A DNA stretch of 64,000 bases from an uncultured Candidatus Rokubacteria bacterium. Its GTDB lineage: Bacteria; Methylomirabilota; Methylomirabilia; Rokubacteriales; DASRDR01. The notes below the pieces were generated by a model. It saw nothing but the letters and a program-made list of their open reading frames with translations. It did no database searches and was not told the DNA's origin. This document shows positions 9,391 through 46,166 of the stretch, in pieces. The translations under genes and the position numbers were made by a program. The stretch's first letter is position 1; the number at the start of each line of letters is the position of its first letter. The stretch spans positions 256,001-320,000 of the forward strand of contig CAVPSB010000032.1 in assembly GCA_963708025.1 (NCBI GenBank), read 5' to 3'.

Positions 9391-9879
9391 TCAGCGCAAA
9401 CCTTCCAGTACCTGATCAATGCGCTCGCGGGTCAGGGGGCCCACGTACTCGTCGTCCACCTGCATCATCGGCGCGACCTCGCAGGCGCAGAGGCACTCCA
9501 CCCGGAACAGCGTGACCCGGCCGTCGGGGGTCGTCTCCCCCGCCTCGATGCCGAGCTGCTCCTGGAGGTAGGCGATCACGTCCTCGGCCCCGAGCAGGGT
9601 GCACGAGAGGTTGTGGCAGACGGAGAGGGTGTGCCGCCCGACCGGCTTCTTGAGGAAGAGCGTGTAGAAGGTCACCACCTCGTGGACGTGGGCCGCCGAC
9701 AGGCCGAAGAGCCCGGCCACGTAGGTCTCGACCTCGGGCGAGACCCAGCCGAAGGTCTCCTGGGCGAAGTGCAGGACCGGCAGCAGGGCACCGCGGCGGT
9801 CCGGATAGAGCGCCTGCAGCTCCCGGACCCGGCGGAGCTGCGCGTCGGAGAAGACGATGGCCCCCACGGCCTCCGGCAT
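9391..9879 (-). CDS. nuoE: NADH-quinone oxidoreductase subunit E
   Basis: VVTFYTLF; [2Fe-2S] ligands CHNLSC and ECLCAC. Confidence 0.93.
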   Translation of the reverse strand: MPEAVGAIVFSDAQLRRVRELQALYPDRRGALLPVLHFAQETFGWVSPEVETYVAGLFGLSAAHVHEVVTFYTLFLKKPVGRHTLSVCHNLSCTLLGAEDVIAYLQEQLGIEAGETTPDGRVTLFRVECLCACEVAPMMQVDDEYVGPLTRERIDQVLEGLR

Positions 9880-9919
9880 CAGCGCTCCACCTCCGACCGA
9901 CGCCCACAGAGCGTCCACA

Positions 9920-10137
9920 GCCCGGGTCGAGACCCGAGCAGCCCCCGCAGGCCGAAGGCCGTCCGACCGACGCAGGGAGTCGCCGACCGCAGGCGCACTC
10001 CGAGTACGCCGAGGATCAGCGACGACCCCAAAGGCCGAAGGCCATCCGAGGGACGCCCATAGGTCGGGACGGACGCCGAGCCGTAGGCGAGGCGCGTCAC
10101 GGCCGAGATGGGCGATGCGACGGGTATCGACCCGGGC
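9920..10137. repeat. Family A repeat, copy A2 (nuoD-nuoE gap)
   Basis: Same core as A1; outer stem gcccgggtcgagacccg / cgggtatcgacccgggc. Confidence 0.9.
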
Positions 10138-10138
10138 A

Positions 10139-11533
10139 TCAGCGCTCCAGCTCGCCCGCGATCATGTTGACCGACCCGAAGGTCGGCACCATGTCGGCGA
10201 CCATGCGTCCCTCCAGCATGCGGTGGAGCGCGGCGGTCGGTGGGAGGCAGGGCGGGCGGCAGCGCACCCGGTAGGGCCGGTCCGTCCCGTCGGACACGAC
10301 GTAGAAGCCGAGCTCGCCGTTGGCGCCCTCCACCGCGAAGTAGGCCTCGCCCTTCGGCGGGCGGATGCCGAACCCCTCCATGATCAGCATGAAGTGGTTC
10401 ATCAGTCCCTCGATGGAGCCGTAGGTCTGCTCTTTCGGCGGCAGGACGGCGCGCCGGTTGGCGGCGTTGACGGCGTCGTGGAACGGCCGCTCCTGCCCGC
10501 GCAGGTTCGGTGAGAGCCGGAGCGGGGTCAGGAGGAGCCCGTCGGTCTTCCCGAGCTTGCCGCGGTCCACGAACTCGGCGGGGGTCGGCAGGGGTCGTCC
10601 CTCGAAGTCCACGTTGACCGGCCCCGCGGGCATGCGGGCCATCGCCTGCTCGGCGATCCGCATCGACTGCTCCATCTCGGCCATGCGGACGAGATACCGG
10701 TCGTAGTTGTCCCCGATCTCGCCCACGGGGATCTCGAAGTCCAGGCGGTCGTAGGCCCAGTACGGCGTCGCCCGCCGGACGTCGAATGGCACGCCGCAGG
10801 CCCGGAGCATGGGGCCGGTGATCGCGTAGGCGATCGTCTCGTCCCGGGAGAGGATCCCGATCCCCTTCATCCGGTCGATGAAGATCCGGTTCCCGGTCAG
10901 CAGCTTGTGGACCTCCTCCAGAACCTCCCGGGTCTCCTTGAAGGCCTGCCGGACGCCGGGCTCGAAGTCGGACGGCAAGTCGGCCTTGACGCCGCCCACC
11001 CGACCGTAGGAGATCGTCAGCCGCGCCCCGGTGACCTTCTCGATCACCTCCCACAGGAACTCGCGGGCCTTGATCATGTAAAGGAAGGCGGTGAACGCCC
11101 CCAGCTCCATGGCGGTGGCGCCGATGCAGGTGAGGTGGTCGCTGACCCGGGAGATCTCGCTCATGATCACCCGGATGTACTGGCAGCGCTCGGTGACCTC
11201 GATGTCCAGCAGCTTCTCGACCGCCGAGGCGTACCCGAAGTTGTTGATCAGGGGCGAGACGTAGTTCAGGCGGTCGGTGTACGGGATGGCGTTGTTGTAG
11301 GGCCCGGCCTCGCAGTGCTTCTCGAACCCCCGGTGGAGGTAGCCGATCTCCACGTCGGCCTTGACCAACGTCTCTCCGTCCAGTTCGGCGAAGATCCGGA
11401 TGACACCGTGCATCGCCGGATGGGACGGCCCGATGTTGACCAGCACGTTCTCGGTCGCCTCCGGCTGGGGGAACGTCCCCTCGCCGAGGAAGAACTCCTG
11501 GGTCCGTCGCGTCGCGCGCTCGGGCTCGGCCAT
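10139..11533 (-). CDS. nuoD: NADH-quinone oxidoreductase subunit D (cluster 1)
   Basis: NIGPSHPAMHG, IGYLHRGFEK, YTDRLNY, C-terminal GELER. Confidence 0.95.
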   Translation of the reverse strand: MAEPERATRRTQEFFLGEGTFPQPEATENVLVNIGPSHPAMHGVIRIFAELDGETLVKADVEIGYLHRGFEKHCEAGPYNNAIPYTDRLNYVSPLINNFGYASAVEKLLDIEVTERCQYIRVIMSEISRVSDHLTCIGATAMELGAFTAFLYMIKAREFLWEVIEKVTGARLTISYGRVGGVKADLPSDFEPGVRQAFKETREVLEEVHKLLTGNRIFIDRMKGIGILSRDETIAYAITGPMLRACGVPFDVRRATPYWAYDRLDFEIPVGEIGDNYDRYLVRMAEMEQSMRIAEQAMARMPAGPVNVDFEGRPLPTPAEFVDRGKLGKTDGLLLTPLRLSPNLRGQERPFHDAVNAANRRAVLPPKEQTYGSIEGLMNHFMLIMEGFGIRPPKGEAYFAVEGANGELGFYVVSDGTDRPYRVRCRPPCLPPTAALHRMLEGRMVADMVPTFGSVNMIAGELER

Positions 11534-11536
11534 CAG

Positions 11537-18699: not shown

Positions 18700-19488
18700 T
18701 TATCGGGTCGGGGCCGCGGCCCGCTTCTTCGCCTCGCGGAGGACCCGGACGATGGTGACGAAGTCGGCGGCTTTCAGGCTCGCCCCGCCGACCAGACCCC
18801 CGTCCAGCTCGACCTCGGCCATGAGGGCGGACAGGTTCTCGGGCTTGACACTGCCACCATAGAGGATCGGACAGGCGTCGGCCACGCCGTCGCCCGCCAG
18901 CTCGCGCAGGAGGCTCCGGATTCGCGCGTGGACCTCGCCGGCCTGGGCCGGCGTCGCCGTCTGCCCGGTCCCGATGGCCCACACCGGCTCGTAGGCGACC
19001 CAGCACGCCGCGATCTCGGCGGGGGTGAGCCCGGCCACGGCGCTCCGGAGCTGGCCGCTCACGACGGCCTCCGTCGTGCCCCCCGCGCGCTCGGCCGCCG
19101 TCTCCCCGACGCACACCACCGGGGTGAGCCCGTGGGCCAGCGCCCCGCGCACCTTCCGGTGCACGACCTCGTCGGTGTCGCCGAAGTACTGGCGGCGCTC
19201 CGAATGGCCCAGGATGACGACCCGGGCACCAGCGTCCGCGACCTGGACAGGAGAGATCGCGCCGGTGAAGGCGCCCTTGGCCTCCCAGTGCGCGTCCTGG
19301 GCGCCGGCCAGCAGGCCCGAGCCCGCCAGGACGCGGGCCACGGTGGCGAGCGCGGTGAACGGAGGGCACAGGACGACCTGGACGCCGTCCAGGCCGTGGC
19401 AGCCCTCGCGTACGGCCTGGGCCAGCGCGTGGGCCTCGGCCAGCGTGGTGTGCATCTTCCAGTTCCCGACCACCACCGGCTCCCGCAT
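18700..19488 (-). CDS. tpiA: Triosephosphate isomerase
   Basis: GNWKM, GHSERR, AYEPVWAIGTG, YGGSVK, LVGGASL. Confidence 0.97.
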   Translation of the reverse strand: MREPVVVGNWKMHTTLAEAHALAQAVREGCHGLDGVQVVLCPPFTALATVARVLAGSGLLAGAQDAHWEAKGAFTGAISPVQVADAGARVVILGHSERRQYFGDTDEVVHRKVRGALAHGLTPVVCVGETAAERAGGTTEAVVSGQLRSAVAGLTPAEIAACWVAYEPVWAIGTGQTATPAQAGEVHARIRSLLRELAGDGVADACPILYGGSVKPENLSALMAEVELDGGLVGGASLKAADFVTIVRVLREAKKRAAAPTR

Positions 19489-19502
19489 CACGCGTTCCCC
19501 CC

Positions 19503-19680
19503 GATGCCGGGCCGAGAACCGAGCAGCCCCCGTAGGCCGCAGGCCGTCCAGCCGACGCAGGGAGGAGGCGGGCCGAGACGTACGCCGCGATCGACCATCT
19601 GGTCGCGGCGCCTCGGGACGTCGCTCCCTTCCGGGAGGCCCGCCGGGATGATGAAGATGGCGAAGGTCATCGGCACGGCA
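19503..19680. repeat. Family A variant, copy A3 (pgk-tpiA gap) with a different internal module
   Basis: Outer stem gatgccgggccgagaacc / ggtcatcggcacggcatc. The left arm gagcagccccc..aggccg.aggccgtcc..gacgcagggag resembles A2, but the central hairpin is replaced. Confidence 0.75.
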
Positions 19681-20865
19681 TCACGCGTCGTCCAGCGCGG
19701 CCACGCCGGGCAGCGTCCGCCCTTCGAGGAATTCGAGGAAGGCGCCGCCACCGGTGGAGAGATACCCGATCCGCCGGGCGACGCCCGCCTGCTCGACGGC
19801 CGCCACCGTGTCTCCCCCGCCGACGACGGAGAGCCCGGGCGCCTCGGCGACCGCCCGCGCGACGCCGAGGGTGCCGGCCGCGAAGGGCGCCCGCTCGAAG
19901 ACGCCCATCGGGCCGTTCCACACCACCGTCCCGCCGTCCCGGATCGCCTCGCCGAACGCCGCCACCGTGCGGGGGCCGATGTCGAGGCCCATCCGGTCGG
20001 CCGGCATCGCGGTGACCGGGACGACCTCACCGGCGGTCGCCTCGACGGAGAGGGCGACGACGGAGTCCACCGGAAGCCGGATCTCGACACCGCGCGCCCG
20101 GGCCATCTCGGCGAGGCGGGCGGCGGCCGGGATCAGATCCGGCTCCAGGAGCGAGCGGCCCACCTCCCGGCCCTGTGCCTTGAGGAAAGTGAAGGCCATC
20201 CCGCCGCCGATCAGCAGCCGATCGACCTTGGTGAGGAGCGACTCGACGAGCTTCAGCTTGTCCGAGACCTTGGCCCCGCCCAGGATGGCGACCAGCGGGC
20301 GGGCCGGGGCGTCGAGGACCCGCCCCAGCGCCTCCAGCTCCTGCTTCATCAGCAACCCGGCGACGGCCGGGCGGAGAAAGCGCGTGATGCCCTCGGTCGA
20401 GGCGTGGGCCCGGTGGGCGGCGGCGAACGCGTCGTTGACGTAGACGTCGCCAAGCGCGGCCAGCGCCCGGGCGAAGGCCGGATCGTTCGCCTCCTCGCCG
20501 GCGTGGAAGCGGAGGTTCTCGAGCAGCAGGAGCCCGCCCGGAGTCAGGTCGCGGACCTGCGCCTCCACGGCGGGGCCGACGCAGTCGAGGGCGAGCGGCA
20601 CCTCGACGCCGACGAGCTGCCCGAGCCGGACCGCCACCGGGCGGAGCGAGTACCGGGGATCGGGCCCGCCCTTGGGCCGCCCGAAGTGGGAGGCGAGGGC
20701 GATCCGGGCGCCGGCCTTCCGGGCGCGGTCGATCGTCGGCAGCACGCCGCGGATGCGGGAGTCCTCGGCGACCTCGCCCGCCCGCGTCAACGGGACGTTG
20801 AAGTCGACGCGCAGGAAGACGCGGCGACCGGCCAGGTCCACGTCCTCGATGGTGCGCTTCTTCAC
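19681..20865 (-). CDS. pgk: Phosphoglycerate kinase
   Basis: RVDFNVP, SHFGRP, LENLRF, GGAKVSDK, STGGGAFLE. Confidence 0.97.
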   Translation of the reverse strand: MKKRTIEDVDLAGRRVFLRVDFNVPLTRAGEVAEDSRIRGVLPTIDRARKAGARIALASHFGRPKGGPDPRYSLRPVAVRLGQLVGVEVPLALDCVGPAVEAQVRDLTPGGLLLLENLRFHAGEEANDPAFARALAALGDVYVNDAFAAAHRAHASTEGITRFLRPAVAGLLMKQELEALGRVLDAPARPLVAILGGAKVSDKLKLVESLLTKVDRLLIGGGMAFTFLKAQGREVGRSLLEPDLIPAAARLAEMARARGVEIRLPVDSVVALSVEATAGEVVPVTAMPADRMGLDIGPRTVAAFGEAIRDGGTVVWNGPMGVFERAPFAAGTLGVARAVAEAPGLSVVGGGDTVAAVEQAGVARRIGYLSTGGGAFLEFLEGRTLPGVAALDDA

Positions 20866-24355: not shown

Positions 24356-24374
24356 GCGCTACCTCCGGGGCCTC

Positions 24375-24454
24375 GGTTCGGGACCTCCCGCCTACCCGAT
24401 CCTTCGACGGCCTTCGGCCTTTGGCCCCCTCCCCACCCCATTCCTCACACGCTC
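24375..24454. repeat. Family C repeat, copy C3
   Basis: gttcgggacctcccgcctaccc..gacggccttcggcct..ccattcctcacacgctc; both ends match 60894-61062. Confidence 0.75.
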
Positions 24455-25171
24455 TCAGGCCGGCGGGCCGACCGTCAACCGCTCGTGGAGGGCGGTCAGC
24501 ATCTCGTCGACCGCGGCGCCCGCCCAGATGCGAAAGAAGGGCGAGCGCTGCAGCTCGACGAACTCGCCGTCGCCGCGCCGGCGCGTCTCCTCCGGGCTCT
24601 CCCCGGGCCGCGCCGCCAGCATGTGGCCCCGGATCCGGTCCTTGTGGTAGATCGCCGGGTACTCGGTGTAGTGGTACAGGTACCGGAGATCCCGCGTGTA
24701 GAAAACGGCGACCGGGATCGACTGCCACGTCTGCCCGTTCTTCTCGTTCAGGAACTCCGCCATGATGTCGGCGTTGCTGTCGGGCGCCTCGGCCAGGCTC
24801 GGCCGATCGCTCGCGCTGAAGCGCCGGCCGTCCCGCCGGAAGATCCGCAGCTCCCAGCCCGCCGCCTCCGCCATCCGGGCGAGCGCCGGCACGTCGCGCC
24901 GACAGTCGGACGACCACTCCTCGGAGATGGCCAGGATCTTCGCCGGCCCGTCGGGCCGGCTGGCCAGCCAGCGGAGCGCCGCCACCTGGGGCTCGGACAG
25001 GCGCGTCGCGTCGTACCACGCGCGGACCTCGGCGGTGCGGTCCGGACGCGGCGCCCCACCGCCAGACGCCTCGCGCGCCAGGTTCTCCGGCGTCCCGAGC
25101 GAGGCCAGGTACTGCTCGAACGTCATGCCGGAGGCGAACCGTCCCGGCGTCACCACGCTCTGTCGCGTCAT
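24455..25171 (-). CDS. Thioredoxin-fold protein with SxxC active site
   Basis: KILAISEEWSSDCRRDVP and cis-Pro motif SIPVAVF. Confidence 0.75.
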   Translation of the reverse strand: MTRQSVVTPGRFASGMTFEQYLASLGTPENLAREASGGGAPRPDRTAEVRAWYDATRLSEPQVAALRWLASRPDGPAKILAISEEWSSDCRRDVPALARMAEAAGWELRIFRRDGRRFSASDRPSLAEAPDSNADIMAEFLNEKNGQTWQSIPVAVFYTRDLRYLYHYTEYPAIYHKDRIRGHMLAARPGESPEETRRRGDGEFVELQRSPFFRIWAGAAVDEMLTALHERLTVGPPA

Positions 25172-30211: not shown

Positions 30212-31474
30212 CTACTCGCGGATCTGACCGGAGCCCAGCACCACGAACTTGGTGGTCGTCAACTCTACGACGCCGACCGGCCCGCGGGCGTGGAGCTTGG
30301 AGGTCGAGATCCCCAGCTCGGCGCCCATCCCGAATTGACTGCCGTCGCAGAGTCGGGTCGAGGCGTTGACCAGGACGCAGGCCGCGTCCACCTCGGCCAG
30401 GAAGCGGCGAGCGCGGCCGTAGTCACGGGTGACGATCGCCTCGGCGAGCCCGGACCCGTGCTCCCGGACGTGGGCCACCGCGGCGTCGAAGTCGTCCACG
30501 ACCCGCACGGCCAGGATCAGGTCGAGGTACTCGGTCCGCCAGTCCTCGTCGGTGGCGGGCTTGGCCCAGGGGATCAAGGCGCATGTCCGCGGGCAGCCGC
30601 GCAGCTCGACGCCCGCGTCGCGAAGCCGGGCCGCCGCCACGGCGAGGAACGCCTCGGCCACGCCCTGGTGGACGAGCAGGGTCTCCATGGCGTTGCACAC
30701 CCCGGGACGCTGGGCCTTGGCGTTGACCGCGATCTCGGTCGCCATGGCCAGGTCGGCGTCCGCGTCCACGTAGACGTGGCAGAGCCCCTTGTCGTGCTTG
30801 AGGACGGGAATGGTCGCCCGCTCGGCCACCATGCGGATGAACTCCTCCCCGCCCCGCGGGACGATGAGGTCGACGTAGCGGTCGAGGGTCAGGAGGACAT
30901 CGACCGCCTCGCGGTCCGGCACGTCGATGAAGCCGATGGCCTCCGCCGGCAACCCCACCTTCTCCAGCCCCTTGCCCAGGATCGCCGCGATGACCGCGTT
31001 CGACTCGAGCGCCTCCCGTCCACCCCGCAGCACGCAGGCGTTCCCCGCCTTCACGCAGAGGGCCGCCGCGTCGGCGGTGACGTTCGGGCGGCTCTCGTAG
31101 ATGATCGCCACCACGCCGAGGGGCACGCGCACGCGCCCGACTTCCATGCCGTTCGGCCGGCGCCACATCCCCACGGTCTCGCCGACCGGATCGGCCAGCG
31201 CCGCGATCTGGCGGATCCCGGCCGCCATCTCCGCCACCCGCTCGTCGGTCAGGGTCAGCCGGTCCAGGAACGCCCGGGGGTGGCCCTGGCCGCGGGCGCG
31301 CTGGAGGTCGGCGCGGTTGGCCCGGAGGACCGTCGAGACCTTTTCCTCGAGCCCTCGCGCCATCTGCGTCAGCGCGTCGTTCTTCACGCGGGACGAGGCG
31401 AGCGCCAGCGCCCGGGCGGCCTCCCGCGCGGCGCGCCCCCGGGTCTCCACCAGCTCGCGGATGTTGGTGGCCAT
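30212..31474 (-). CDS. proA: Gamma-glutamyl phosphate reductase
   Basis: VPLGV..IYESRPNV, GVCNAMETLL, GISTSKLHARGP. Confidence 0.96.
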   Translation of the reverse strand: MATNIRELVETRGRAAREAARALALASSRVKNDALTQMARGLEEKVSTVLRANRADLQRARGQGHPRAFLDRLTLTDERVAEMAAGIRQIAALADPVGETVGMWRRPNGMEVGRVRVPLGVVAIIYESRPNVTADAAALCVKAGNACVLRGGREALESNAVIAAILGKGLEKVGLPAEAIGFIDVPDREAVDVLLTLDRYVDLIVPRGGEEFIRMVAERATIPVLKHDKGLCHVYVDADADLAMATEIAVNAKAQRPGVCNAMETLLVHQGVAEAFLAVAAARLRDAGVELRGCPRTCALIPWAKPATDEDWRTEYLDLILAVRVVDDFDAAVAHVREHGSGLAEAIVTRDYGRARRFLAEVDAACVLVNASTRLCDGSQFGMGAELGISTSKLHARGPVGVVELTTTKFVVLGSGQIRE

Positions 31475-31674
31475 GAGCGCCCCTAGAGTATCACGAGGTG
31501 GTGGCCCACCCGGCCCCGCGTGGAGTCCGGGTAGTGTCTCAGTTTGAAAGCCAGCCGGTCAGGAGCCAAACGAGATCTCCTATGACGTAGACGGCGAGCA
31601 GGGCGGCGGCCGTGCCGCATGTGATAGCAGCGAGCGCAATGAGAAGGCGCCAATCCAGCCGCCCACTGCACCCC

Positions 31675-31797
31675 GCGCCGGGCCGAGACCCGAGCAGCCC
31701 TAGGACGCAGGGAGTCGCCGACCGGAGGCGTACTCCGAGTACGCCGAGGATCGGCGACGACCGAGGACGACGGGATGCGACGGGTCTCGGCCCGGCG
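31675..31797. repeat. Family A repeat, copy A4 (proB-proA gap)
   Basis: Perfect 18-bp outer stem gcgccgggccgagacccg/cgggtctcggcccggcgc around the ggcgtactccgagtacgcc hairpin. Confidence 0.9.
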
Positions 31798-32913
31798 CTA
31801 CAGGATCACGAGGTCGTCGCGGTGGATGACCTCGTCCACCACCCGGTAGCCGAGCAGGCGCTCGATGTGGCTCGTCTTCGCGCCCCGGAGCAGACCCACC
31901 TCGCGCGCGTCGTAGTTGACGATCCCCCGGGCGAACTCGCGCCCCTCGGCGTCGCGGACGGAGACCGCGTCCCCCGCCGAGAACTCGCCGTTGACCTTGA
32001 CGACGCCGGACGGCAGCAGGCTCTTTCCCCCCTCGACCAGCGCCCGCCGAGCGCCGGAGTCCACCTCGAGGATGCCCTGGGCCGGGATCGCGAAGGCGAT
32101 CCACCGCTTCCGCGCCGTCAGCCGGTCGTCGCGCGGCTTGAAGTAGGTGCCGAGCGGCTCGCCCCCGAGGACCGCCTGCAGGACGCCGGGCCGGCGGCCG
32201 TCGGCGATGACCATCGGGATGCCCGCCGCCATCGCCTTCTGGGCCGCCTGCAGCTTCGTCACCATGCCGCCGGTCCCGAGCGGGCCCTGCGCCCCCGCCA
32301 GCCGCTCCAGCTCGGGGGTGATCGCCTCGACAGTCTCGATACGCCGCGCCGCCGGATCCCGGTTCGGGTCGCCGGTGTAGAGGCCGTCGGTGTCGCTGAG
32401 CAGGACCAGGAGGTCGGCTTCGATCAGGTAGGCGACGAGAGCGGCCAGGTTGTCGTTGTCCCCGACCTTGATCTCTTCCACCGCCACGGTGTCGTTCTCG
32501 TTGATGATCGGCAGCACACCGTATCCGAGCAGGGTCAGCAGCGTGTTGCGCGCGTTCAGGTAGCGCCTCCGGTCGCTGACGTCCTCCCCGGTGAGGAGAA
32601 TCTGGGCCACGCGCCGCCCGTGGGCGGCGAAGGCCTGCTCGTAATGCCACATGAGGGCCACCTGGCCGGCGGCGGCCGCGGCCTGCTTCTCCGGGATCGA
32701 CCGCGGCCGCTCCTTGAGGCCGAGGCGGGCGGTGCCTGACGCGATCGCTCCGGACGAGACGAGGGCCACCTCCAGTGGCCGGGCGGTGATCGCCGCCAGC
32801 TCCGCCGCCAGCCGCCCGATCCGCGCCGGATCGGGCCCGAGGCGGGCCTCGGCCACCAGGCCGCTGCCGACCTTGACCACGAGCCGCCGGATCGGGGGGA
32901 GCTGTCGGGTCAT
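31798..32913 (-). CDS. proB: Glutamate 5-kinase
   Basis: VVKVGS, PIINENDTV, GDNDNL, GTGGMVTK, C-terminal PUA domain. Confidence 0.96.
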   Translation of the reverse strand: MTRQLPPIRRLVVKVGSGLVAEARLGPDPARIGRLAAELAAITARPLEVALVSSGAIASGTARLGLKERPRSIPEKQAAAAAGQVALMWHYEQAFAAHGRRVAQILLTGEDVSDRRRYLNARNTLLTLLGYGVLPIINENDTVAVEEIKVGDNDNLAALVAYLIEADLLVLLSDTDGLYTGDPNRDPAARRIETVEAITPELERLAGAQGPLGTGGMVTKLQAAQKAMAAGIPMVIADGRRPGVLQAVLGGEPLGTYFKPRDDRLTARKRWIAFAIPAQGILEVDSGARRALVEGGKSLLPSGVVKVNGEFSAGDAVSVRDAEGREFARGIVNYDAREVGLLRGAKTSHIERLLGYRVVDEVIHRDDLVIL

Positions 32914-32980
32914 CCCGTCGCCCGGGCCGGACGCGCGGGCCGGATCTGATCTTCAGGGGCGACACACGGGAGCAGTCGGG

Positions 32981-34036
<1,056 letters not shown>

Positions 34037-34792: not shown

Positions 34793-35593
34793 GTGAGACG
34801 CGCTCCGATCGCCCTCCTCTCGGGCGCCGTGGCCCTCCTGCTCGTCCTGGCGCTCCCCGGCGTCCGCGCCGGGACGGCTCACGCGCTCGGTCTCCTGGCG
34901 GCCGGCGATCTCGGCGGTCTCCGCGAGTATCTCCGCGGCTTCGGACTCTGGGCCCCGCTCGTCTCGGCCGCGCTCATGCAGGTCCAGGCGGTCATCGCGC
35001 CGCTCCCGTCGTTCCCCCTCATGTACGCCAACGGGCTGCTCTTCGGCACGCTCTGGGGGGGCCTCCTGTCCTGGACGAGCATCCTGGTCTCCGCGATGGT
35101 CTGCTTCGGTCTGGCGCGCCTCTTCGGCCGGCCCCTCGTCGAGCGCATGGTGAGCCCGGCCGCCCTCACCCGGGCCGACCGCCACCTCGCGCGACTCGGT
35201 CCGCTCGCCCTCTTCGTGGCCCGGCTGATCCCCCTGACCTCGTTCGACCTCCTGAGCTACGCGGCGGGCCTGACCTCGATGCGCCTCGGCCCCTTCTGCC
35301 TGGCGACCGGGCTCGGGATGGCCCCGGCCATCTTCCTGACCGCGGCCGCCGCCGATCTCGGCTGGCACTCGCCGTGGGCGCTCCTCGCGGCGATCCTGGG
35401 GATCGCCGCCGTGGCCGGGTTGGTGGTCCTCGTCCGCCCGCGGGTGGCCCGTCGGCTCGGCGGCCAGCCGGCTGGTGCGACGCCCCCTCGAGACCCCCGA
35501 GCGGCCCCCTTCGGAGGCCGCGGCAATGCTGCGGCTCGGAACGGCGCCGCGGTCGGTGATCCTAGAGTCCTTGACGCGCCAAAGTCATGGTAG
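34793..35593 (+). CDS. TVP38/TMEM64 (DedA/SNARE-associated) membrane protein
   Basis: [34 protein letters not shown]; start approximate. Confidence 0.85.
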
Positions 35594-35739
35594 ATGAGTC
35601 AAGTTCTCGGGGGCGGGGCCGAGGAGCGAGCAGCGCTAGGACGCAGGGAGTCGCCGACCGCAGGCGTACTCCGAGTACGCCGAGGATCGGCGACGACCGA
35701 GGACGACGCGATGCGACGCTCATCGGCCCCGCCCGCTAG
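35562..35739. repeat. Family A repeat, copy A5
   Basis: Shares both the core and the left leader (ctag..caaagtcatgg.agatga.tcaa.ttctcggg) with A1; ends in CTAG, the sigma factor stop. Confidence 0.9.
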
Positions 35740-36347
35740 GCCGTGCGGCCGAAGTACTCCGCCAAGCGCTGGCGCAGGAAGAGCCGCGAGCGGTGGACCC
35801 GGGACTTCACGGCCGGGAGGCTGATGCCGAGCAACTCCCCGACCTCGGGGTTCGACACCCCCTCCATGTCGTGGAGCACGAAGGCCGTCCGGTAGTCCGG
35901 CGGGAGGCTGTCGATCGCCTCCCGGAGCCGCTCCCGGGCCTCCCCCTGGAGGGCAGGGTCCTCGAAGGCCTGGGTCCAGTCCCGGACGGGCTCGGCAAAG
36001 TGACCGTCGGCGTCGAAGGAGGGCAGGAGAGTCTCCCAGGACACCTCGTCCCGGCCCCGCCGGCCGCGGAGCTTCTGGTAGGCGGCGTTCGCCGTGATCC
36101 GGTAGATCCAGCTCCCGAGCGCGGACTCGCCTTTGAAGGTGTCGATCTTCCGGGAGACGGTCCACATGACGTCCTGGGTCACTTCCTGGGCATCCTCCGG
36201 ATTCCCGGTGATCCGCAACGCAAGCCGGTACGTCTTCGGGGCGAATCGAGCCACCAGCTCCTCGACGGCCTCGGGCCGGCGGTCGAGCAGCGACTGCTGC
36301 AACTGCTCGTCCGACCACTCGGTTGTCGGCGTCACGGGTCGTGCCAT
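35736..36347 (-). CDS. ECF RNA polymerase sigma factor
   Basis: Region 2 DAQEVTQD..SWIYRITAN; region 4 LPPDYR..VKSRVHRSR. Confidence 0.92.
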   Translation of the reverse strand: MARPVTPTTEWSDEQLQQSLLDRRPEAVEELVARFAPKTYRLALRITGNPEDAQEVTQDVMWTVSRKIDTFKGESALGSWIYRITANAAYQKLRGRRGRDEVSWETLLPSFDADGHFAEPVRDWTQAFEDPALQGEARERLREAIDSLPPDYRTAFVLHDMEGVSNPEVGELLGISLPAVKSRVHRSRLFLRQRLAEYFGRTA

Positions 36348-36696
36348 GGGGCAATCCGCCCGGTCCCAGGATCCCACCGTCCGCCGCCGGACCGGCCGGG
36401 ATCCCCGCCGCCTGCCCGGGCAAGGGACGCGCTCAGCTTCGAGCGTCGACGGGTCCGGCGTCTCGGGCAGGCCGGGAACCCTGTGGGCGTGAATGTCCTA
36501 GGTACCACGGCCGACCGACCCGGTCAAGCGCGCCGGCATCTGCATCTACCCGGCCCGCCGGCGCTCGCTTGACACTGACCGCGCCCTCGGGTAGTCGTGG
36601 GGAAGGGTTCATCTGCCAGGCTGCGGTCCCGCGAGCGGGGCCGCCTGAATGGCCCACGGGGCGATCGCGTCGGAACGGGACGAGGACGGTCAGACC

Positions 36697-37082: not shown

Positions 37083-38492
37083 CTAGAACAGGGGGGTGGC
37101 GGCGCGGAGGGCGGTGTCGAGGAGCGGGCGCGGGTAGAGGCCGAGGAGCACGATGGCGAGCGCGCTGACGAGGATCACGAGGGCGAGAGCCGGCGGCACC
37201 GAAACCGGCGTCGTCGTGACGGGCGGGTCGATGTACATCTGCTTGGCGACGAGCAGATAGTAGAAGAGGGCCACCACGGTCAGCACGGCACCGAGCAGCA
37301 CCAGCCCGTAAAGGCGCGCCTCCGCCGCCGCCCAGAAGACGTAGAGCTTCGCCCAGAAGCCCACCACGAAGGGGATCCCGCCCAGCGAGAGCAGGAAGAG
37401 CAGCATGGCCAGCGCCAGGAGCGGCGAGCGCTGGGCCAGCCCCCGGAACGCGGCAACGCCGGTCGATCCCTCGGCCTGGGCCACCGCCTCGACGACCAGG
37501 AAGGCCCCCATGTTCGCGAAGACGTAGGCGACCAGGTAGAAGAGGACGACGGCGACGCCGAACGGGCTCACCGCCGCCACCCCGAGCAGCATGTAGCCGA
37601 TGTGGGCGATGCCCGAGTAGGCGAGGAGCCGCTTGAGGTTCGTCTGGGGCAGCGCCATGAGGTTGCCGGCGACCATGGTGATCGCCGCCAGCGCGGCGGC
37701 CAGGGGCACCCAGACGGCCGCCCGGTCGCCGGCTCCCTCGAGGAAGACCCGGACGATGACGGCGAAGCCCGCGGCCTTGGGCGCCACCGAGAGCCAGGCG
37801 ACGAACGGCGTGGAGGCCGCCTCGTAGGTGTCGGGCACCCACATGTGGAAGGGGAAGGCCGCGATCTTGAACCCGAGGCCCGCCAGGACCAGGATGAAGC
37901 CGAGGACGAGGACCGGGTTGCCGGCGCCGAGGGCTCGGACGAGCTCGGGTACCATCGTCGTGCCGGTGGCGCCGTAGAGGAACGACAGACCATAGGCCAG
38001 GATCGCCGTGGACAGGCTCCCGACCAGGAAGAACTTCAGTCCCGCCTCCACCGCCAGCTCCTCGCGCTTGTCGAAGGCCGCCAGCACGTAGAGCGGGATC
38101 GACATCAGCTCGAAGGCGACGAAGAGCAGCACCAGCTCCCGGGCCGACGCCAGGAGCAGCATGCCGAGGAGCGAGGCCAGGATCAGGAGGTGGTACTCCG
38201 GCGCCCGCCGGTGGAACGCGGGCTGGCGGAGCGCCAGCCCGCCGACCACCCCGAGCAGCGTCGCCAGCACGAAGACCTGCTTGAAGAAGCGGGCCAGCCC
38301 GTTGACGACGTAGGCGCCCTCGAACAGGGCCCCGCGCGCGTCGAAGAGGACCGAGAGCGCCAGCAGGCCGGCCAGGCCCACCGCCGTGACGACCCCCGCC
38401 TCCCGCCGGCGGGCCGGACCCGCCACCAGACCCAGCCCGAGGACGACCAGCATGAGCCCGGCCAGCGTCAGCTCGAGCGTGAGCAGCATCAC
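37083..38492 (-). CDS. nuoN: NADH-quinone oxidoreductase subunit N (cluster 2)
   Basis: EAGLKFF, FKIAAFPFHMWVPDTYE, KRLLAYSGIAH. Confidence 0.93.
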   Translation of the reverse strand: MMLLTLELTLAGLMLVVLGLGLVAGPARRREAGVVTAVGLAGLLALSVLFDARGALFEGAYVVNGLARFFKQVFVLATLLGVVGGLALRQPAFHRRAPEYHLLILASLLGMLLLASARELVLLFVAFELMSIPLYVLAAFDKREELAVEAGLKFFLVGSLSTAILAYGLSFLYGATGTTMVPELVRALGAGNPVLVLGFILVLAGLGFKIAAFPFHMWVPDTYEAASTPFVAWLSVAPKAAGFAVIVRVFLEGAGDRAAVWVPLAAALAAITMVAGNLMALPQTNLKRLLAYSGIAHIGYMLLGVAAVSPFGVAVVLFYLVAYVFANMGAFLVVEAVAQAEGSTGVAAFRGLAQRSPLLALAMLLFLLSLGGIPFVVGFWAKLYVFWAAAEARLYGLVLLGAVLTVVALFYYLLVAKQMYIDPPVTTTPVSVPPALALVILVSALAIVLLGLYPRPLLDTALRAATPLF

Positions 38493-40027: not shown

Positions 40028-40067
40028 ATCCAATAGGGGGGGGAGTCCCAACCACTCCCCCCCTAGA

Positions 40068-40197
40068 CCCCCCCACCTGGGGGTTACGCCCCCCCACCTG
40101 GGGGTTACGCTCCCCCACCTGGGGGTTACGCCCCGTCCCCCACCTGGGGGTTACGCCCCCCCACCTGGGGGTTACGCCCCCCCACCTGGGGGTTACG
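40068..40197. repeat. Tandem repeat (VNTR), six copies of a ~21-bp unit CCCCCCCACCTGGGGGTTACG
   Basis: Core cacctgggggttacg at 40074, 40095, 40116, 40141, 40162, 40183. Confidence 0.92.
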
Positions 40198-40240
40198 GTC
40201 TGTCTGAAGCGGTGCGTGCCATGCTGACGGCCGGATCGGC

Positions 40241-42142: not shown

Positions 42143-42332
42143 GTTATTCGGGCCGGGGGGGAGCTGCGCGCTCCTCCCCCGGTCCCCCCCTCCGGATGTC
42201 CCCTCGCAAGCGCATCCTCGGCGATTGCTTCAGGGCGCCTCCGGGCCGGGGGGGAGCTGCGCGCTCCTCCCCCGGTCCCCCCCTCCGGATGTCCCGGCGC
42301 TGGCGCAGGTTCGGCGACTCCTTCACCGCTGC
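42143..42332. repeat. Family B repeat, two tandem short copies (B2a, B2b) in the nuoK-nuoL gap
   Basis: cgggccgggggggagctgcgcgctcctcccccggtccccccctccggatgtccc occurs at 42149 and 42242. Confidence 0.88.
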
Positions 42333-42629
42333 TCAGCCCCGGAGCAGCGTCAGGTGATCCGCCTCGACGGTCCGGCGGACGCGGAAGATCACGATGACGA
42401 TCGCCAGGCCCACCGCGATCTCGGCGACGGTGATGGCGATCGTGAAGAGCGTCAGGACCCAGCCCGCGACCCCGGCGCCGTAGCGGGCGAAGGCCACGAG
42501 GTTGATGTTGACCGCGTTCAGCATCAGCTCGATGCCGAGCAGGATGCCGACCGCGTTCCGCCGGGTCAGCACGCCGAAGAGCCCGATGGCGAACACCCCG
42601 GCGGCGAGCAGTAGGTACGCCTTCAGCAC
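42333..42629 (-). CDS. nuoK: NADH-quinone oxidoreductase subunit K (cluster 2)
   Basis: [20 protein letters not shown]. Confidence 0.93.
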
Positions 42630-43194: not shown

Positions 43195-43748
43195 TCGCTG
43201 GCGTCCGTCCCCGTGGTGGGGCGCGGCTCCCCGGCCCGGGCCCGGTCGGCTCCCCTCGGCGCCGGCGCCTGCATCGCGCGCAGGCGGGTGCCGGTCGCCC
43301 AGGACGGCGCGAACTGCTGGCCCAGCGTGTGCAGCCGGTCCTTGTCGAGCAGCAGCGTCCGGCGGTCGTCGGTGGCCAGGTCGAAGGTCTTGAGCATGAT
43401 GATCGCGTCGGTCGGGCAGACCTGGACGCACAGCTCGCAGAACTCGCAGGCGTAGAGCTCCAGGAAGAAGATCTTGGCGAAGTTCCGCTTCTCGCCCTTC
43501 AGCATCTCGACCTTGATGACCTGGGGCGGGCAGATGTACTCGCAGAGCCGGCAGCCGATGCAGTTCTCCTCGCCCGTCTCCGGATCGTAGGTGAGAGCCA
43601 GCAGCCCCCGGAAGCGCTCCGGGTACGGCCGGGTCACCTCCGGGTAGTGGACGGTGACCGGCTTGCGGAAAAGGTTCCGGAGCGTCACCCCCATCGCGGT
43701 GCCGCCGGCCCGGATCATCCGGAGCGTGGTCCGGAGCGTCTCAGCCAC
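43191..43748 (-). CDS. nuoI: NADH-quinone oxidoreductase subunit I (cluster 2)
   Basis: CIGCRLCEYICP and CEFCELCVQVCP. Confidence 0.93.
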   Translation of the reverse strand: MAETLRTTLRMIRAGGTAMGVTLRNLFRKPVTVHYPEVTRPYPERFRGLLALTYDPETGEENCIGCRLCEYICPPQVIKVEMLKGEKRNFAKIFFLELYACEFCELCVQVCPTDAIIMLKTFDLATDDRRTLLLDKDRLHTLGQQFAPSWATGTRLRAMQAPAPRGADRARAGEPRPTTGTDASE

Positions 43749-44730
43749 CGCCGCCGCCTTGCAGCACCACCACGACCGCCGCCGCCAGCAGGAGGGCCAG
43801 CGAGGCGGGCAGGAACACCTTCCAGGAGAGCGCCAGGATCTGGTCGACCCGGATCCGGATGAACGACCAGCGGATCCAGACGACCAGGAGGAAGAGCATC
43901 ACCGCCTTCAGGATGAACCAGACGGGCCCGAGCCCGGCCGGCCCCGGGCCGAGCCAGCCGCCCAGGAACAGGAGCGTCCCCAGGCACGCCACCCCGAAGA
44001 GATGGGTGAACTCGGCGAGCTGGATCAGGGCGAACTTCATGCCCGAGTACTCGACACGGAAGCCGGCGACCAGCTCCGACTCCGCCTCGACGATGTCGAA
44101 GGGGATCCGGTTCTCGGAGGCGAGCGACGCGACGAGGAACGCCGCGAACGCGAGCTGGCCGAGCACGGGGTAGGTGACGAACCACCACGGATCCTGGGCG
44201 GCGACCAGGTCGCTGAGCCGCAGCGACCCCGCCAGCACGACGGGCACCAGCGCGATCAGGATGAACGGCACCTCGTACGCGATGATCTGGTTCACGGCCC
44301 GCATGGCGGAGAGGAGCGCGTACTTGTTGTTGGACCCCCAGCCGCACATGAACAGCCCGACGACCTCGAGGGAGGACACCGCCAGGACGAACAGGAGCCC
44401 GATCTGGAGGTCGGCCAGCGCCAGCCGCGGCGCGAACGGGATCGCGGCGTACATCAGGAAGGCAGGGATCAGGAAGACGATCGGCGCCAGGTTGTAAACC
44501 GGCCGGTCGGCGACGGTCGGGACGATGTCTTCCTTCAAGAGGAGCTTGAGCGCGTCGGCGATCGGCTGGAGCCAGCCGTGCGGCCGCCCGACCCGGTAGG
44601 GTCCCACCCGCGACTGGAGCCGGGCCGCGAACTTCCGCTCGAGCAGCGTCAGGTACGCGATGAACACGAGCACGCCGTTCAGCAAAATGAACGGCGGAAG
44701 CACGATCCCCACCACGTCGGCCACGCTCAT
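43741..44730 (-). CDS. nuoH: NADH-quinone oxidoreductase subunit H (cluster 2)
   Basis: ERKFAARLQSRVGP, QPIADALKLLLKE, PFDIVEAESELVAG. Confidence 0.93.
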   Translation of the reverse strand: MSVADVVGIVLPPFILLNGVLVFIAYLTLLERKFAARLQSRVGPYRVGRPHGWLQPIADALKLLLKEDIVPTVADRPVYNLAPIVFLIPAFLMYAAIPFAPRLALADLQIGLLFVLAVSSLEVVGLFMCGWGSNNKYALLSAMRAVNQIIAYEVPFILIALVPVVLAGSLRLSDLVAAQDPWWFVTYPVLGQLAFAAFLVASLASENRIPFDIVEAESELVAGFRVEYSGMKFALIQLAEFTHLFGVACLGTLLFLGGWLGPGPAGLGPVWFILKAVMLFLLVVWIRWSFIRIRVDQILALSWKVFLPASLALLLAAAVVVVLQGGGGG

Positions 44731-45008
44731 CCCGCGACCCCTGAGCCGGGCCGAGAACCGAGCCCGCTCATCCCGCGACCCCCGAGCCGGGCCGAGAACG
44801 GAGCAGCGCCCAAGGGAAGGCGTCCGACGGACGCAGGGAGTCGCCGACCGCAGGCGTACTCCGAGTACGCCGAGGATCGGCGACGACCGAGGACGACCAT
44901 AGGCCGGGACGGACGCCCCAGGCCGAAGGCCGTCCGATCGACGCAGGCCGAGCGCGTCACGGCCGAGATAGAGATCGCGAAGGTTCTCGGCCCGGCTCGG
45001 CCCGGCTC
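44724..45008. repeat. Family A repeat, copy A6, with a 40-bp tandem duplication of its left end plus the nuoH start
   Basis: Outer stem ccgagccgggccgagaac/gttctcggcccggctcgg; 44724-44763 is repeated at 44765-44804 with 2 mismatches. Confidence 0.9.
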
Positions 45009-46166
45009 TCACCGGTCGACCTCGCCGAAGACTGGATCGATCGACCCCAGGATCGCGACGGCATCGGCGATCTTGTGGCCGGGAAGGATGTGGCCGGCGA
45101 CCGCCAGGTTCGAGAAGGACGCGCCCCGCCACTTCATCCGGTAGGGCTTCGTCGCGCCGTCCGACACCAGGTAGATCCCGACCTCGCCCCGCGGCCCCTC
45201 CACCCGGGCATAGGCCTCGCCCTTCGGCAGCTTCACCTGCGCCACCGACTTGACGCCGGGGCGCGAGGAGATAGGGCCGGCGGGCAGGCCGTCCAGCCCC
45301 TGCCGGACGATCCGGATCGACTCCCGGAACTCGCGCATCCGCACCCGGTAGCGGGCGAAGCAGTCGCCCTCGACCTCCACCGGGACGTCGAACTGGAAGT
45401 CCTCGTAGGAGGAGTACGGCTCGGCCCGGCGGATGTCGTGGGAGATCCCCGAGCCGCGGAGGAGCGGTCCCGAGATGCCGAGCTCCTGGGCCAGCTCCCG
45501 CGTGATGACGCCGACCCCCTGGCTGCGGACCAGGAAGATGGTGTTCCCCTCCAGCATGGCCTCGTACTCGACGAGTCGCTCCTCGATGTGGGCGAGCGTC
45601 CGCCGGCACTGCTCGGCCCATCCCTCCGGCAGGTCGTACCGCGTCCCGCCCACCTGGTGGAACCCGTAGAGGAGCCGGGCTCCGGTGAGCGCCTCGAAGA
45701 GGTCGAGGATCATCTCCCGCTCGCGGAAGCAGTAGAGGAACATGGTCGCCCCGCCCCCGAGGGCGCCGCCCATGTCCATGCACCACGTCCCCAGCCACAG
45801 GCAGTGGGAGGCGATCCGCTGCAGCTCGGCCACCAGGACCCGGAGATGCTGCGCGCGCTTCGGCACCTCGATCTGGCCGAGCTGCTCGGCGGCCCGGACG
45901 TAGGTCAGCTCGGCGGTCATCGCGGCGACGTAGTCGGTCTTCGAGGCGATCGAGGGGTACTGGACGTAGGTCAGCGTCTCGCCCAGCTTCTCGTGGCAGC
46001 GATGGAGGTAGCCGATCACCGGGTCCACCGCCACGATCGTCTCGCCCTCCAGCGTGAGGATCATCCGGAAGACGCCGTGGGCGGACGGGTGCTGCGGCCC
46101 CATGTTCATCACGAGGCGCTCGTTGCCGCCGTAGCCGTACTCGATGACCGTTCGCCCCTCGGCCAT
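45009..46166 (-). CDS. nuoD: NADH-quinone oxidoreductase subunit D (cluster 2)
   Basis: NMGPQHPSAHG, IGYLHR, C-terminal GEVDR; no NiFe CxxC motifs. Confidence 0.93.
   Translation of the reverse strand: MAEGRTVIEYGYGGNERLVMNMGPQHPSAHGVFRMILTLEGETIVAVDPVIGYLHRCHEKLGETLTYVQYPSIASKTDYVAAMTAELTYVRAAEQLGQIEVPKRAQHLRVLVAELQRIASHCLWLGTWCMDMGGALGGGATMFLYCFREREMILDLFEALTGARLLYGFHQVGGTRYDLPEGWAEQCRRTLAHIEERLVEYEAMLEGNTIFLVRSQGVGVITRELAQELGISGPLLRGSGISHDIRRAEPYSSYEDFQFDVPVEVEGDCFARYRVRMREFRESIRIVRQGLDGLPAGPISSRPGVKSVAQVKLPKGEAYARVEGPRGEVGIYLVSDGATKPYRMKWRGASFSNLAVAGHILPGHKIADAVAILGSIDPVFGEVDR

Follow-up and report, generated by a model that had tools for sequence, protein, structure and literature searches.

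MIRU elements (mycobacterial interspersed repetitive units) are among the described systems closest to the repeats studied here; in the accessible text of the source they are mobile units that insert at start codons, carry an ORF coupled at -4 nt, and lie within operons while translation of the neighbours continues (PMC12548453). The Chunjie, Correia and Nezha MITEs are small and non-coding, with terminal inverted repeats, stable hairpins and many copies, may occupy operon sites and, as far as the accessible text goes, occur as filled and empty sites among relatives (PMC3184786, PMC10969869). Long target duplications of variable length are described in the accessible text for IS1630 of the IS30 family (16, 23, 25 and 26 bp; PMC3317919) and for IS1549/IS1634 (8-514 bp, with no mechanistic model put forward there; PMC2266710). 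Both are autonomous elements with a transposase, from Mycoplasma and Mycobacterium, and stop-codon targeting is not reported in the accessible text on them.

REP elements lie adjacent to stop codons and have a GTAG head, and we know of none described with flanking target duplications. Insertion sequences of the IS5 group generate a 4-bp duplication of a CTAG-type target. Junctions at which stop and start overlap are regarded as closed to insertion, as an insert breaks either one of the two genes or their translational coupling. We analyzed a window of 64,000 nt (the whole stretch of DNA under study, covering 64 kb of the source genome), compared it with 80 Rokubacteria MAG loci numbered L001 onward, and searched 1.35 Mb of wider sequence for the repeat termed F1 and for a transposase. 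We consider it probable, at roughly 55%, that these are non-autonomous MITE/REP-like repeats whose insertion brings a target duplication that is long and variable and has its end at the stop codon.

Structure and position of the F1 repeats

F1 is a modular palindrome that has the same orientation as the flanking genes in every copy. Its short form is ~120 nt and its long form ~215 nt, and both end in complementary arms of 15-17 nt; six copies were found in the window and 18 places by blastn in the 1.35 Mb. The short forms folded with z-scores of -5.3 to -7.7 and the long forms with -4.4, and double changes occurred at 13 of the 17 predicted stem pairs in an alignment that partly misplaces the long forms. 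Short, non-coding, bounded by terminal inverted repeats and present in several copies, F1 resembles a MITE; as a GC-rich extragenic palindrome whose hairpin is kept by compensatory change, it also resembles a REP. Unlike in MITEs, the arm sequences differ among copies yet remain complementary.

The proposal of an earlier note on this DNA that the element enters at stop codons was borne out, as the 5′ arm begins at the first base past the stop codon in 11 of 13 copies. An inner motif, C[GT]TCGC, lies 15-18 nt from the stop in 11/13 copies, the values for L002 E1b, L034 and L002 pgk to be taken one lower. The stop context of the target is (C/G)T(A/G)(G/A), i.e. S-T-R-R, with no fixed GTAG head. 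The same note described A1 and A5 as bounded by CTAG, which is true of A1 (19-288) but not of A5 (44785-45008), where the stop is TGA and no CTAG is near. CTAG surrounds A1, A4b and a separate element, F3, and is absent at TGA-type sites; these three carry only this 4-nt repeat at their ends and thereby resemble classical MITEs with a short fixed repeat. The 3′ extension common to A1 and A4b comprises 41 nt at 88% identity. F3 proper (1693-1787, 95 nt) has a terminal inverted repeat of 13 nt, TGCCGTTCCAACT, and a CTAG on both sides, of which that at 1788-1791 contains the E1b TAG stop. The gene names nuoD, nuoE, pgk, tpiA, proB and proA given earlier are correct; Table 1 gives their coordinates and the Pfam match of nuoE. 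The nuoF gene in the window appears frameshifted.

Table 1. Repeat copies, duplicated junctions and genes in the window
Feature	Coordinates	Strand	Remark
A1, whole	19..288	-	CTAG-bounded long-form F1
A1 first CTAG	285-288	-	contains TAG stop of PDH E2 gene
A1 long-form F1 palindrome	66-284	-	
A1 3′ extension module	23-65	-	43 nt
A1 second CTAG	19-22	-	
F3 MITE with CTAG flanks	1689..1791	-	E1b/E2 spacer
A2, whole	9875..10153	-	nuoD/nuoE
A2 duplicate 1	10135-10153	-	nuoD end including TGA
A2 long-form F1	9922-10134	-	
A2 unique filler	9894-9921	-	
A2 duplicate 2	9875-9893	-	SD and ATG of nuoE
A3, whole	19485..19688	-	pgk/tpiA
A3 duplicate 1	19678-19688	-	pgk TGA
A3 F1 copy	19507-19680	-	interior diverged
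A3 filler	19496-19506	-	
A3 duplicate 2	19485-19495	-	tpiA ATG
A4, whole	31483..31820	-	proB/proA
A4 duplicate 1	31798-31820	-	proB end including TAG
A4 short-form F1	31677-31797	-	
A4 unique stretch	31506-31676	-	171 nt
A4 duplicate 2	31483-31505	-	followed by proA ATG
obg/proB junction, whole	32897..33006	-	two 39-nt duplicates with ATGA overlap
A4b, whole	35562..35739	-	CTAG-bounded short-form F1
A4b first CTAG	35736-35739	-	TAG stop of ECF sigma-factor gene
A4b short-form F1	35613-35735	-	
A4b 3′ extension module	35566-35612	-	47 nt
A4b second CTAG	35562-35565	-	
A5, whole	44724..45011	-	F1 between nuoD2 and nuoH2
nuoD2 TGA stop (A5)	45009-45011	-	
A5 long-form F1	44785-45008	-	10-nt internal tandem duplication in 5′ arm
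A5 41-nt tandem duplication	44765-44805 and 44724-44764	-	3′ arm with nuoH2 SD and ATG
nuoD	10139-11533		
nuoE	9391-9879		Pfam 2Fe-2S_thioredx
pgk	19681-20865		
tpiA	18700-19488		
proB	31798-32913		
proA	30212-31474		ATG at 31474-31476

Junction duplications in the window and in relatives

The junction copies that had been noticed around A2, A3 and A4 were all recovered and exceeded chance when the upstream flank was shuffled 400 times (p = 0.0025, 0.0125 and 0.005, respectively). The sequence GGCATCAGCGCTCCA is present at 9875 and 10135 only, within 19-mers that have a single mismatch between them, and GCATCACGCGT at 19485 and 19678 only, while the two ends at A4 (31483-31505 and 31798-31820) are identical at 19/23 positions and both encode ..LVIL-stop on the minus strand. 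TGCC in A2 and TGC in A3 belong to the duplicated identity and are also the first bases of the F1 5′ arm; the true duplication may therefore be 15-16 nt in A2 and 8 nt in A3, each with 3-4 nt of microhomology. Two further duplications were identified: 39-nt copies with three mismatches at obg/proB (32968-33006 and 32897-32935), which enclose a 32-nt insert without recognizable F1, and the 41-nt tandem of A5 at 44724-44805.

The upstream stop and the downstream start are kept, as had been claimed, but regeneration of the junction is confined to a minority of copies: a long duplication including the stop (p <= 0.0125) accompanies 5/12 F1 copies and is absent from 7/12, and it is present in 3/15 and absent from 12/15 copies of F2, a second family. 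Likewise, the junction does occur in two copies, but a unique filler parts the F1 3′ arm from the downstream copy, which starts 28 nt after the arm in A2, 11 nt in A3 and 177 nt in A4. The F1 junction repeats are variable in length (11-29 nt) and lie 11-177 nt off the 3′ arm, so they differ from the fixed, abutting target-site duplications of MITEs. The fillers showed no match to the upstream gene that would make them the decayed part of a longer duplication (p 0.29-0.99), and, besides the extension shared by A1 and A4b, the fillers and the 171-nt stretch of A4 gave self-hits only in the compared sequence. Changes in copy 2 relative to copy 1 improve the SD sequence, from GAGCTGGAG to GAGGTGGAG in A2 and GGGGGGAA in A3.

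When 935 gene ends were scanned blind for a duplicate downstream, hits were overall no more frequent than with permuted pairings (15 hits vs 12-16 in controls at scores of at least 13; 7 vs 3-5 at scores of at least 16), and the duplication signal comes from some ten single cases. One scan hit, at the histidine-kinase end at 49720, was a paralogous receiver-domain motif and no duplication. Exact direct repeats of at least 15 nt (95 vs 2, 2 and 6 in shuffles) were mostly tandem and were set aside as support.

The junctions concerned are compact in most relatives, namely nuoD/nuoE in 51/74 loci, pgk/tpiA in 26/29 and nuoA/nuoB in 72/74, and the closest relatives have a single overlapping junction at each of the three. 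Because insert-free relatives carry this single junction, and not both copies as in the outcome that the earlier note had named as refuting, the duplications are derived and associated with insertion. A2 is missing from L001, whose NuoD is 87% identical; conversely, nuoA/nuoB is empty in the window and filled by F1 in L001 and L002, with exact duplications of 18 and 16 nt. F1 is lineage-restricted, with recent gain and loss among close Rokubacteria relatives. Among the filled junctions of relatives, 6/14 have a stop-including duplication (p <= 0.02), and no junction duplication without an insert was found in 14 mid-sized nuoD/nuoE spacers.

F2, which is unrelated to F1 and was found in other MAGs, is accompanied by duplications of 30/30 nt in L014, 27 nt with five mismatches in L037 and 42/43 nt in L033. 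In L014 and L033 the downstream duplicate adjoins the insert with a gap of 0 nt. In L033 a second, diverged F2 copy lies between the 43-nt duplicate and nuoG; the downstream start therefore does not depend on the duplicate, an argument that long duplications are a product of the process itself. Duplicates are known from independent assemblies (the window, L001, L002, L014, L037 and L033), and the direct repeats, which derive from the target, are long and variable (11-43 nt); relatives with an empty site have the sequence once.

Like MIRU, these repeats lie within operons. In A2, obg/proB, A5 and L014, a possible relay ORF links the first junction copy in frame with a stop overlapping the second start. 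In A3 and L037 the corresponding ORF is not in frame, so the insert does not regularly provide coupling, and 4/6 in frame is indistinguishable from the chance expectation of 1 in 3. MIRUs are 40-100-bp tandem units, whereas F1 and F2 are single palindromic hairpins, and in the present case it is the target that supplies the duplicated junction. L070 has tandem units of 64/65 nt, each with its own copy of the ATGA junction; L075 and L076 show further junction tandem repeats, and tandem units were seen among the studied sites only in L070, L076 and A5. F1 and F2 resemble the bacterial MITEs in size, hairpins, copy number and filled and empty sites, but Chunjie has fixed 9-bp direct repeats according to its accessible description, whereas those of F1/F2 are 11-43 nt, variable and present in a minority of copies. 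The accessible parts of the literature on operon MITEs, Rokubacteria repeats, long variable duplications and MIRU coupling do not describe this pattern.

Possible origins of the duplications

The favored reading, insertion with a long target duplication, can be laid out as follows. F1 lies in sense orientation with its 5′ arm at the base right past the stop codon, and at sites of an original overlap or abutment (TGATG, ATGA, or GTG within the end of the upstream gene) the insert comes with a direct duplication. The latter spans 11-43 nt at the 3′ end of the upstream gene and terminates at the stop or <=4 nt from it; the upstream duplicate retains the stop and the downstream one the ribosome-binding region and start. 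This anatomy, the orientation, the stop adjacency, the derived state and the recurrence in a second family are observed; the timing and route of the duplication and the enzyme behind it are inferred. The duplication would be generated during insertion, and selection would weed out insertions without it. It could arise from widely staggered breaks and fill-in, giving a long variable target duplication, or from synthesis that returns to the target upstream of its departure point; the downstream copy would afterwards evolve into a free-standing ribosome-binding site. The filler of 11-177 nt ahead of the downstream duplicate speaks against a simple target-site duplication of F1. The earlier note held that variable length contradicts a DDE transposase; this argument fails, since long variable duplications are known for IS1630 and IS1549/IS1634.

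No mobilizing enzyme was found among the 54 + 13 ORFs scanned in the window, as had been stated before, and these include no RAYT or Y1 HUH gene. Neither a transposase nor a longer element with F1 arms, such as one matching IS1630 or IS1549/IS1634, was detected in the window ORFs or the 1.35 Mb, and the latter contained no F1 arm pairs 0.7-2.5 kb apart, the mark of an autonomous element. Rfam returned a tRNA alone at the gathering score and, at E <= 1, chance-level matches on two elements (SAH, 16 bits; mir-7558, 18 bits); blastn of A1 against PLSDB plasmids gave no match.

Templated insertion is a less likely alternative. Here replication would switch out, copy a hairpin and some of its flank at another locus and re-enter 11-43 nt upstream, with no element enzyme. 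The 3-4 nt of microhomology shared by target and 5′ arm in A2 and A3, the unique filler adjoining the palindrome, the same pattern for the unrelated F1, F2 and 32-nt insert, and the common extension of A1 and A4b, as though a flank had been carried along, are all consistent with it. The constant start of F1 past the stop and its constant orientation fit a site-specific cut better, however; donor flanks were not found in a search of 64 kb of the genome, and the CTAG pairs around three inserts resemble an ordinary 4-nt target duplication.

It is rather improbable that slippage first duplicated the junction in tandem, creating a harmless stop/start spacer in which repeats settled later. Such a sequence of events would account for the filler that separates duplicate 2 from the 3′ arm, for the obg/proB duplication without F1, and for the tandem repeats of A5, L070, L075 and L076. 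Yet the obg/proB duplicates still enclose an insert, bare duplications are missing from the 14 mid-sized spacers, and the duplicates of L014 and L033 directly adjoin the insert downstream; moreover, in 7/~10 cases the end of duplicate 1 coincides exactly with the stop, which random landing would not give.

We give little credence to REP/REPIN-like spread by a HUH (RAYT-type) enzyme without duplication, the duplications being secondary events kept by selection. F1 does share with REP, BIME and REPIN sequences the GC-rich extragenic palindromes in operons, the mosaic reuse of a hairpin module and compensatory maintenance of the stem, as well as the stop-codon adjacency, and the majority of copies lack a duplication. 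Against this, an insertion into an overlapping junction needs a simultaneous duplication to spare both genes, and 8/16 filled junctions show one; in addition, the head is S-T-R-R instead of GTAG, and the scanned ORFs lack a RAYT gene. Chance similarity or an assembly artefact around repeats has a negligible probability: high-GC DNA yields many weak matches, the blind scan shows no overall excess, and the contig is probably metagenome-assembled, with an apparent frameshift in nuoF, but the duplicates are exact at 15, 16, 18 and 30 nt and at 42/43 nt (shuffle p <= 0.0125), sit precisely on stop/start signals and recur across independent assemblies.

Consequences for operons and reuse of an F1 module

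The observed arrangement is a recurrent workaround in which the junction is duplicated along with the insert and both coupled genes stay intact; hairpin repeats between such genes are thereby tolerated in respiratory, glycolytic and proline operons. If insertion makes the duplication, an uncultured phylum would supply another example of target duplications that are long and variable, and the gradual reduction of the downstream copy to a simple ribosome-binding site would offer a marker for insertion age. We tentatively extend this, with a low expectation of being right, to a Rokubacteria insertion process that recognizes ORF ends: it would cut or switch right past the stop, regenerate 11-43 nt beyond the insert and serve several unrelated hairpin families, and hence be host-encoded or trans-acting (template switching at hairpins, or a nuclease/integrase with a long ruler) with no ordinary element-specific transposase. 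If so, the mechanism itself, beyond selection alone, would make operon junctions safe and preferred places to land. For annotation, the inserts are a source of false short ORFs and of duplicated gene ends in MAGs of Rokubacteria. The F1 hairpin module GGACGGCCTTCGGCC is reused in inverted form within another repeat at 60941..60999 (+ strand), which has a further copy at 24370-24455.

Gene junctions at filled and empty sites

The window has a G+C content of 71% and carries most of its genes on the minus strand. The gene map was built from NCBIfam and Pfam profile scans.

Genes of the window identified by NCBIfam/Pfam profile scans
Gene	Position (nt)	Context
PDH E2	285-1658	
PDH E1b	1788-2774	
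PDH E1a	2790-3800	
nuoE	9391-9879	nuoK to nuoE run
nuoD	10139-11533	nuoC, nuoB, nuoA and lipA come next
tpiA	18700-19488	in group secG, tpiA, pgk, gap
pgk	19681-20865	between tpiA and gap
proA	30212-31474	
proB	31798-32913	
obg	32981-34009	
ECF sigma-factor gene	35736-36377	
nuoH2	43741-44730	second nuo cluster
nuoD2	45009-46166	second nuo cluster

The earlier note had located duplicated gene junctions around A2, A3 and A4, three copies of the palindromic hairpin repeat F1; all three were recovered at the same coordinates, each unique in the window. Around A2, the 15-mer GGCATCAGCGCTCCA occurs at 9875 and 10135, with one mismatch when extended to 19 nt, and reads ..GAGCTGGAGCGCTGATGCC on the coding strand, where the nuoD stop overlaps the nuoE start. 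Around A3, the 11-mer GCATCACGCGT occurs at 19485 and 19678 and reads ACGCGTGATGC, the pgk stop overlapping the tpiA start. Around A4, 31483-31505 matches 31798-31820 at 19 of 23 positions and comprises the final proB codons and TAG. The best local matches were significant against 400 shuffles of the upstream flank (p = 0.0025, 0.0125 and 0.005, respectively). The obg/proB ATGA junction has a 39-nt duplication with 3 mismatches surrounding a 32-nt insert, and A5 has a 41-nt tandem duplication of its 3′ arm and the nuoH2 start. A 171-nt stretch of lower G+C lies between A4 and the proA-proximal duplicate (31483-31671, minus strand), with a 62-codon ORF terminating in the duplicated ..HLVIL stop; it matched no family, and nothing similar was found in the sequences compared.

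A NuoD search of genome contigs yielded 80 loci totaling 1.29 Mb, nearly all titled as Rokubacteria/Methylomirabilota MAGs, the closest of which (L001) shares 87% NuoD identity. With an apparent gap of ≤25 nt taken as compact, nuoD/nuoE is compact in 51 of 74 loci, and the nearest relatives have one overlap of nuoD stop and nuoE start (ATGA, GTGA or TGATG). The pgk/tpiA junction, TGATG for most, is compact in 26 of 29 loci and filled solely in L001 and L002, which carry F1 like the window, and in L051. Conversely, nuoA/nuoB is compact in 72 of 74 loci as well as in the window, and is occupied by F1 in L001 and L002, with exact flanking repeats of 18 nt (GGGCTCGCGTGGGACTAG) and 16 nt (CCTGGAATGGGACTAG), respectively, that contain the nuoA TAG and the nuoB start. 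At nuoD/nuoE and pgk/tpiA, element-free relatives thus carry a single junction and not both copies, so that the duplications there are derived, as the earlier note had proposed. A duplication including the junction was found in 6 of 14 filled junctions of the relatives (p ≤ 0.02), or 8 of 16 when A2 and A3 are added. A 403-nt nuoD/nuoE insert in L054 (11371-11775), a very long imperfect palindrome, has no junction duplication.

A second family, F2, consists of two hairpins, GCGCCGGC-TTYG-CCGGCGC and a G6/C6 stem, and is unrelated to F1. At the nuoD/nuoE junction it is accompanied by duplication of the nuoD end over 30/30 nt in L014 and over 27 nt with 5 mismatches in L037. All five differences in the L037 coding copy are third-position changes, indicating that the two copies diverged after a shared insertion. 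In L033, F2 was inserted within the nuoF stop codon with a duplication of 42/43 nt, and a second, diverged F2 copy lies between the 43-nt downstream duplicate and nuoG. The nuoG start does not depend on this duplicate, an argument for long duplications being generated by the insertion process itself.

Tandem units were also observed. The nuoD/nuoE junction of L070 (2798-3019) has three units of 64/65 nt whose boundaries each repeat ACATGAC, containing the ATGA stop/start overlap in a MIRU-like manner, and that of L076 (10268-10432) has 36-nt units. In the window, a 21-nt unit (CCCCCACCTGGGGGTTACGC-like) is repeated seven times in the nuoM/nuoL spacer (40028-40224), and a 93-nt tandem duplication with 86% identity lies upstream of nuoL (42149-42334), with related 59-nt pieces at 46261 and 47081.

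Structure and placement of F1

Alignment of the six window copies shows that F1 is a modular palindrome with complementary terminal arms of ~15-17 nt and a conserved core, GTCGCCGA..GGCGTACTC/GAGTACGCC..TCGGCGAC. The short form spans ~120 nt (A4 and A4b are 90% identical), and the long form (A1, A2 and A5) spans ~215 nt with two additional hairpin modules around GGCCGAAGGCC. Single-strand folding gave z scores of -5.3 to -7.7 for the short form and -4.4 for the long form relative to shuffles. In an 11-copy alignment that misplaces the 5′ ends of the long forms, double changes occur in at least one copy for 13 of 17 consensus pairs, and in 4-5 of the 11 copies within the central stem. The outer arms diverge strongly between copies but remain complementary; at the same site they read, for example, GTGGTGTCGATTCACG in L001 and GCAGGCCCAATCGACT in L002. 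F1 matches no Rfam family. Since blastn found it in only 18 places across 1.35 Mb (the window, L001, L002, L034, L063 and fragments in three loci), F1 is restricted to the closest relatives. Another repeat family (window 24370-24455 and 60887-61075) shares GTTCGGGACCTCCCGCC...CCATTCCT(T)CACACGCTC and reuses, inverted, the F1 hairpin module GGACGGCCTTCGGCC.

All 13 F1 copies read, representing ~9 independent events once orthologous copies are allowed for, run in the same sense as the genes on either side. In 11 of them the inner motif C[GT]TCGC lies 15-18 nt beyond the final base of the upstream stop, with three individual readings one base off, and the 5′ arm therefore starts at the base after the stop. 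This distance is 26 nt in A5, whose arm has a 10-nt tandem duplication, and in the pgk copy of L001 the stop (TAA) lies inside the 5′ arm. There (L001 1450-1480), the original pgk stop is lost and the gene terminates at the arm TAA, reading ..GTGCCGTGCGGATAA. Stop adjacency is kept even where a spacer existed, as at L002 E1b/E2, the sigma-factor gene end and the E2 end. The last four bases through the stop are CTAG in five copies, GTAG in two, CTGA in three and GTGA in two. REP elements, with which RAYT enzymes are associated, lie near stop codons and have a GTAG head, and CTAG is the target of IS5.

CTAG is strongly depleted in the window, where base composition predicts ~169 occurrences and 24 are observed; 10 of them are at or within these inserts and 7 overlap called stop codons. 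A1 (19-288), A4b (35562-35739) and F3, a separate 95-nt MITE (1693-1787), have nothing but CTAG on each side. CTAG bounds had also been claimed for A5, but this copy, whose end is at 45008, comes after a TGA stop and lacks them.

Origin of the duplications

Where genes formerly overlapped, inserts are accompanied by a junction duplication that terminates at the stop codon; it is seen with different inserts and in assemblies independent of one another. We think that it arises with the insertion, and that selection keeps only the events that restore both stop and start. The downstream copy would later have drifted to a stronger Shine-Dalgarno sequence (GAGCTGGAG to GAGGTGGAG in A2; GGGGGGAA in A3).

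Several features depart from a simple target-site duplication. Long duplications were found in only 5 of 12 F1 and 3 of 15 F2 copies. In F1 the upstream duplicate extends as far as the stop (+0 to +4 nt), and the downstream one begins 11-36 nt past the 3′ arm, or 177 nt in A4. The intervening filler matched no other sequence compared, except for an extension common to A1 and A4b; that it is a decayed part of a longer duplication was not supported (p = 0.29-0.99). When 935 gene ends were scanned blindly, duplicated ends were no more frequent overall than in permuted pairs, and the case for the duplications rests on individual, highly significant examples without a genome-wide statistic.

A transposase may break the target with a long and variable stagger, consistent with F1 starting exactly behind the stop and always in one orientation, and with the CTAG repeats. 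Among 67 ORFs scanned, no transposase, HUH enzyme or reverse transcriptase was found, confirming that the window lacks a mobilizing enzyme, and the 1.35 Mb contain no arm pairs spaced like the ends of an insertion sequence. The earlier note had taken the variable duplication length as evidence against a DDE enzyme. This argument fails because long, variable target duplications are on record: passages of the respective reports give 8-514 bp for IS1549/IS1634, proposing no model (PMC2266710), and 16-26 bp for IS1630 (PMC3317919). Apart from the bounds of A5, the original observation stands and is extended, and its interpretation is partly supported, holding for the derived duplications but not for the argument against a DDE enzyme. 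Alternatively to a transposase, synthesis may switch between templates, in keeping with microhomologies of 3-4 nt at A2 and A3, the unique fillers and a pattern common to unrelated inserts. A pre-existing duplication into which repeats later settled is unlikely, as none of 14 mid-sized nuoD/nuoE spacers holds a bare junction duplication without an insert; from this and the absence of duplications at empty sites, we think that the duplication would be made with the insertion.

Known repeats and the gene context

The nearest functional analogue is the MIRU; a passage describing these units has them insert at start codons, where an ORF inside the unit is coupled at -4 nt (PMC12548453). Of the 6 cases here to which a relay ORF applies, 4 have it in frame, indistinguishable from chance. 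Chunjie, a MITE reported in an operon, has fixed 9-bp repeats according to the corresponding passage (PMC3184786). Literature listings and selected passages contained no description of junction-regenerating duplications around repeats or of Rokubacteria repeats. The system combines known kinds, being a MITE/REP-like repeat with long target duplications of variable length that is tolerated within operons in the manner of MIRUs; notable are its stop-codon precision and the recurrence across families.

In this cluster, pyruvate dehydrogenase genes directly follow nuoK (3829-4131, 2790-3800), and nuoL, nuoM and nuoN are 33 kb off, beside the second, partial nuo cluster. The nuoF gene (7905-9419) is seemingly split over two frames near 8350-8400: its profile match extends no further than position 282 of 410, and 7922-8383 is covered by a second frame of high GC3. 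Either a frameshift or an assembly error accounts for this. A tRNA-Ala(ggc) predicted by ARAGORN at 38197-38264 is probably a false call, as the Rfam tRNA model gave no match there at gathering score. NuoD has 464 aa against ~385 in the profile and matches it in two stretches, suggesting an internal insertion of ~70 aa common to the relatives.
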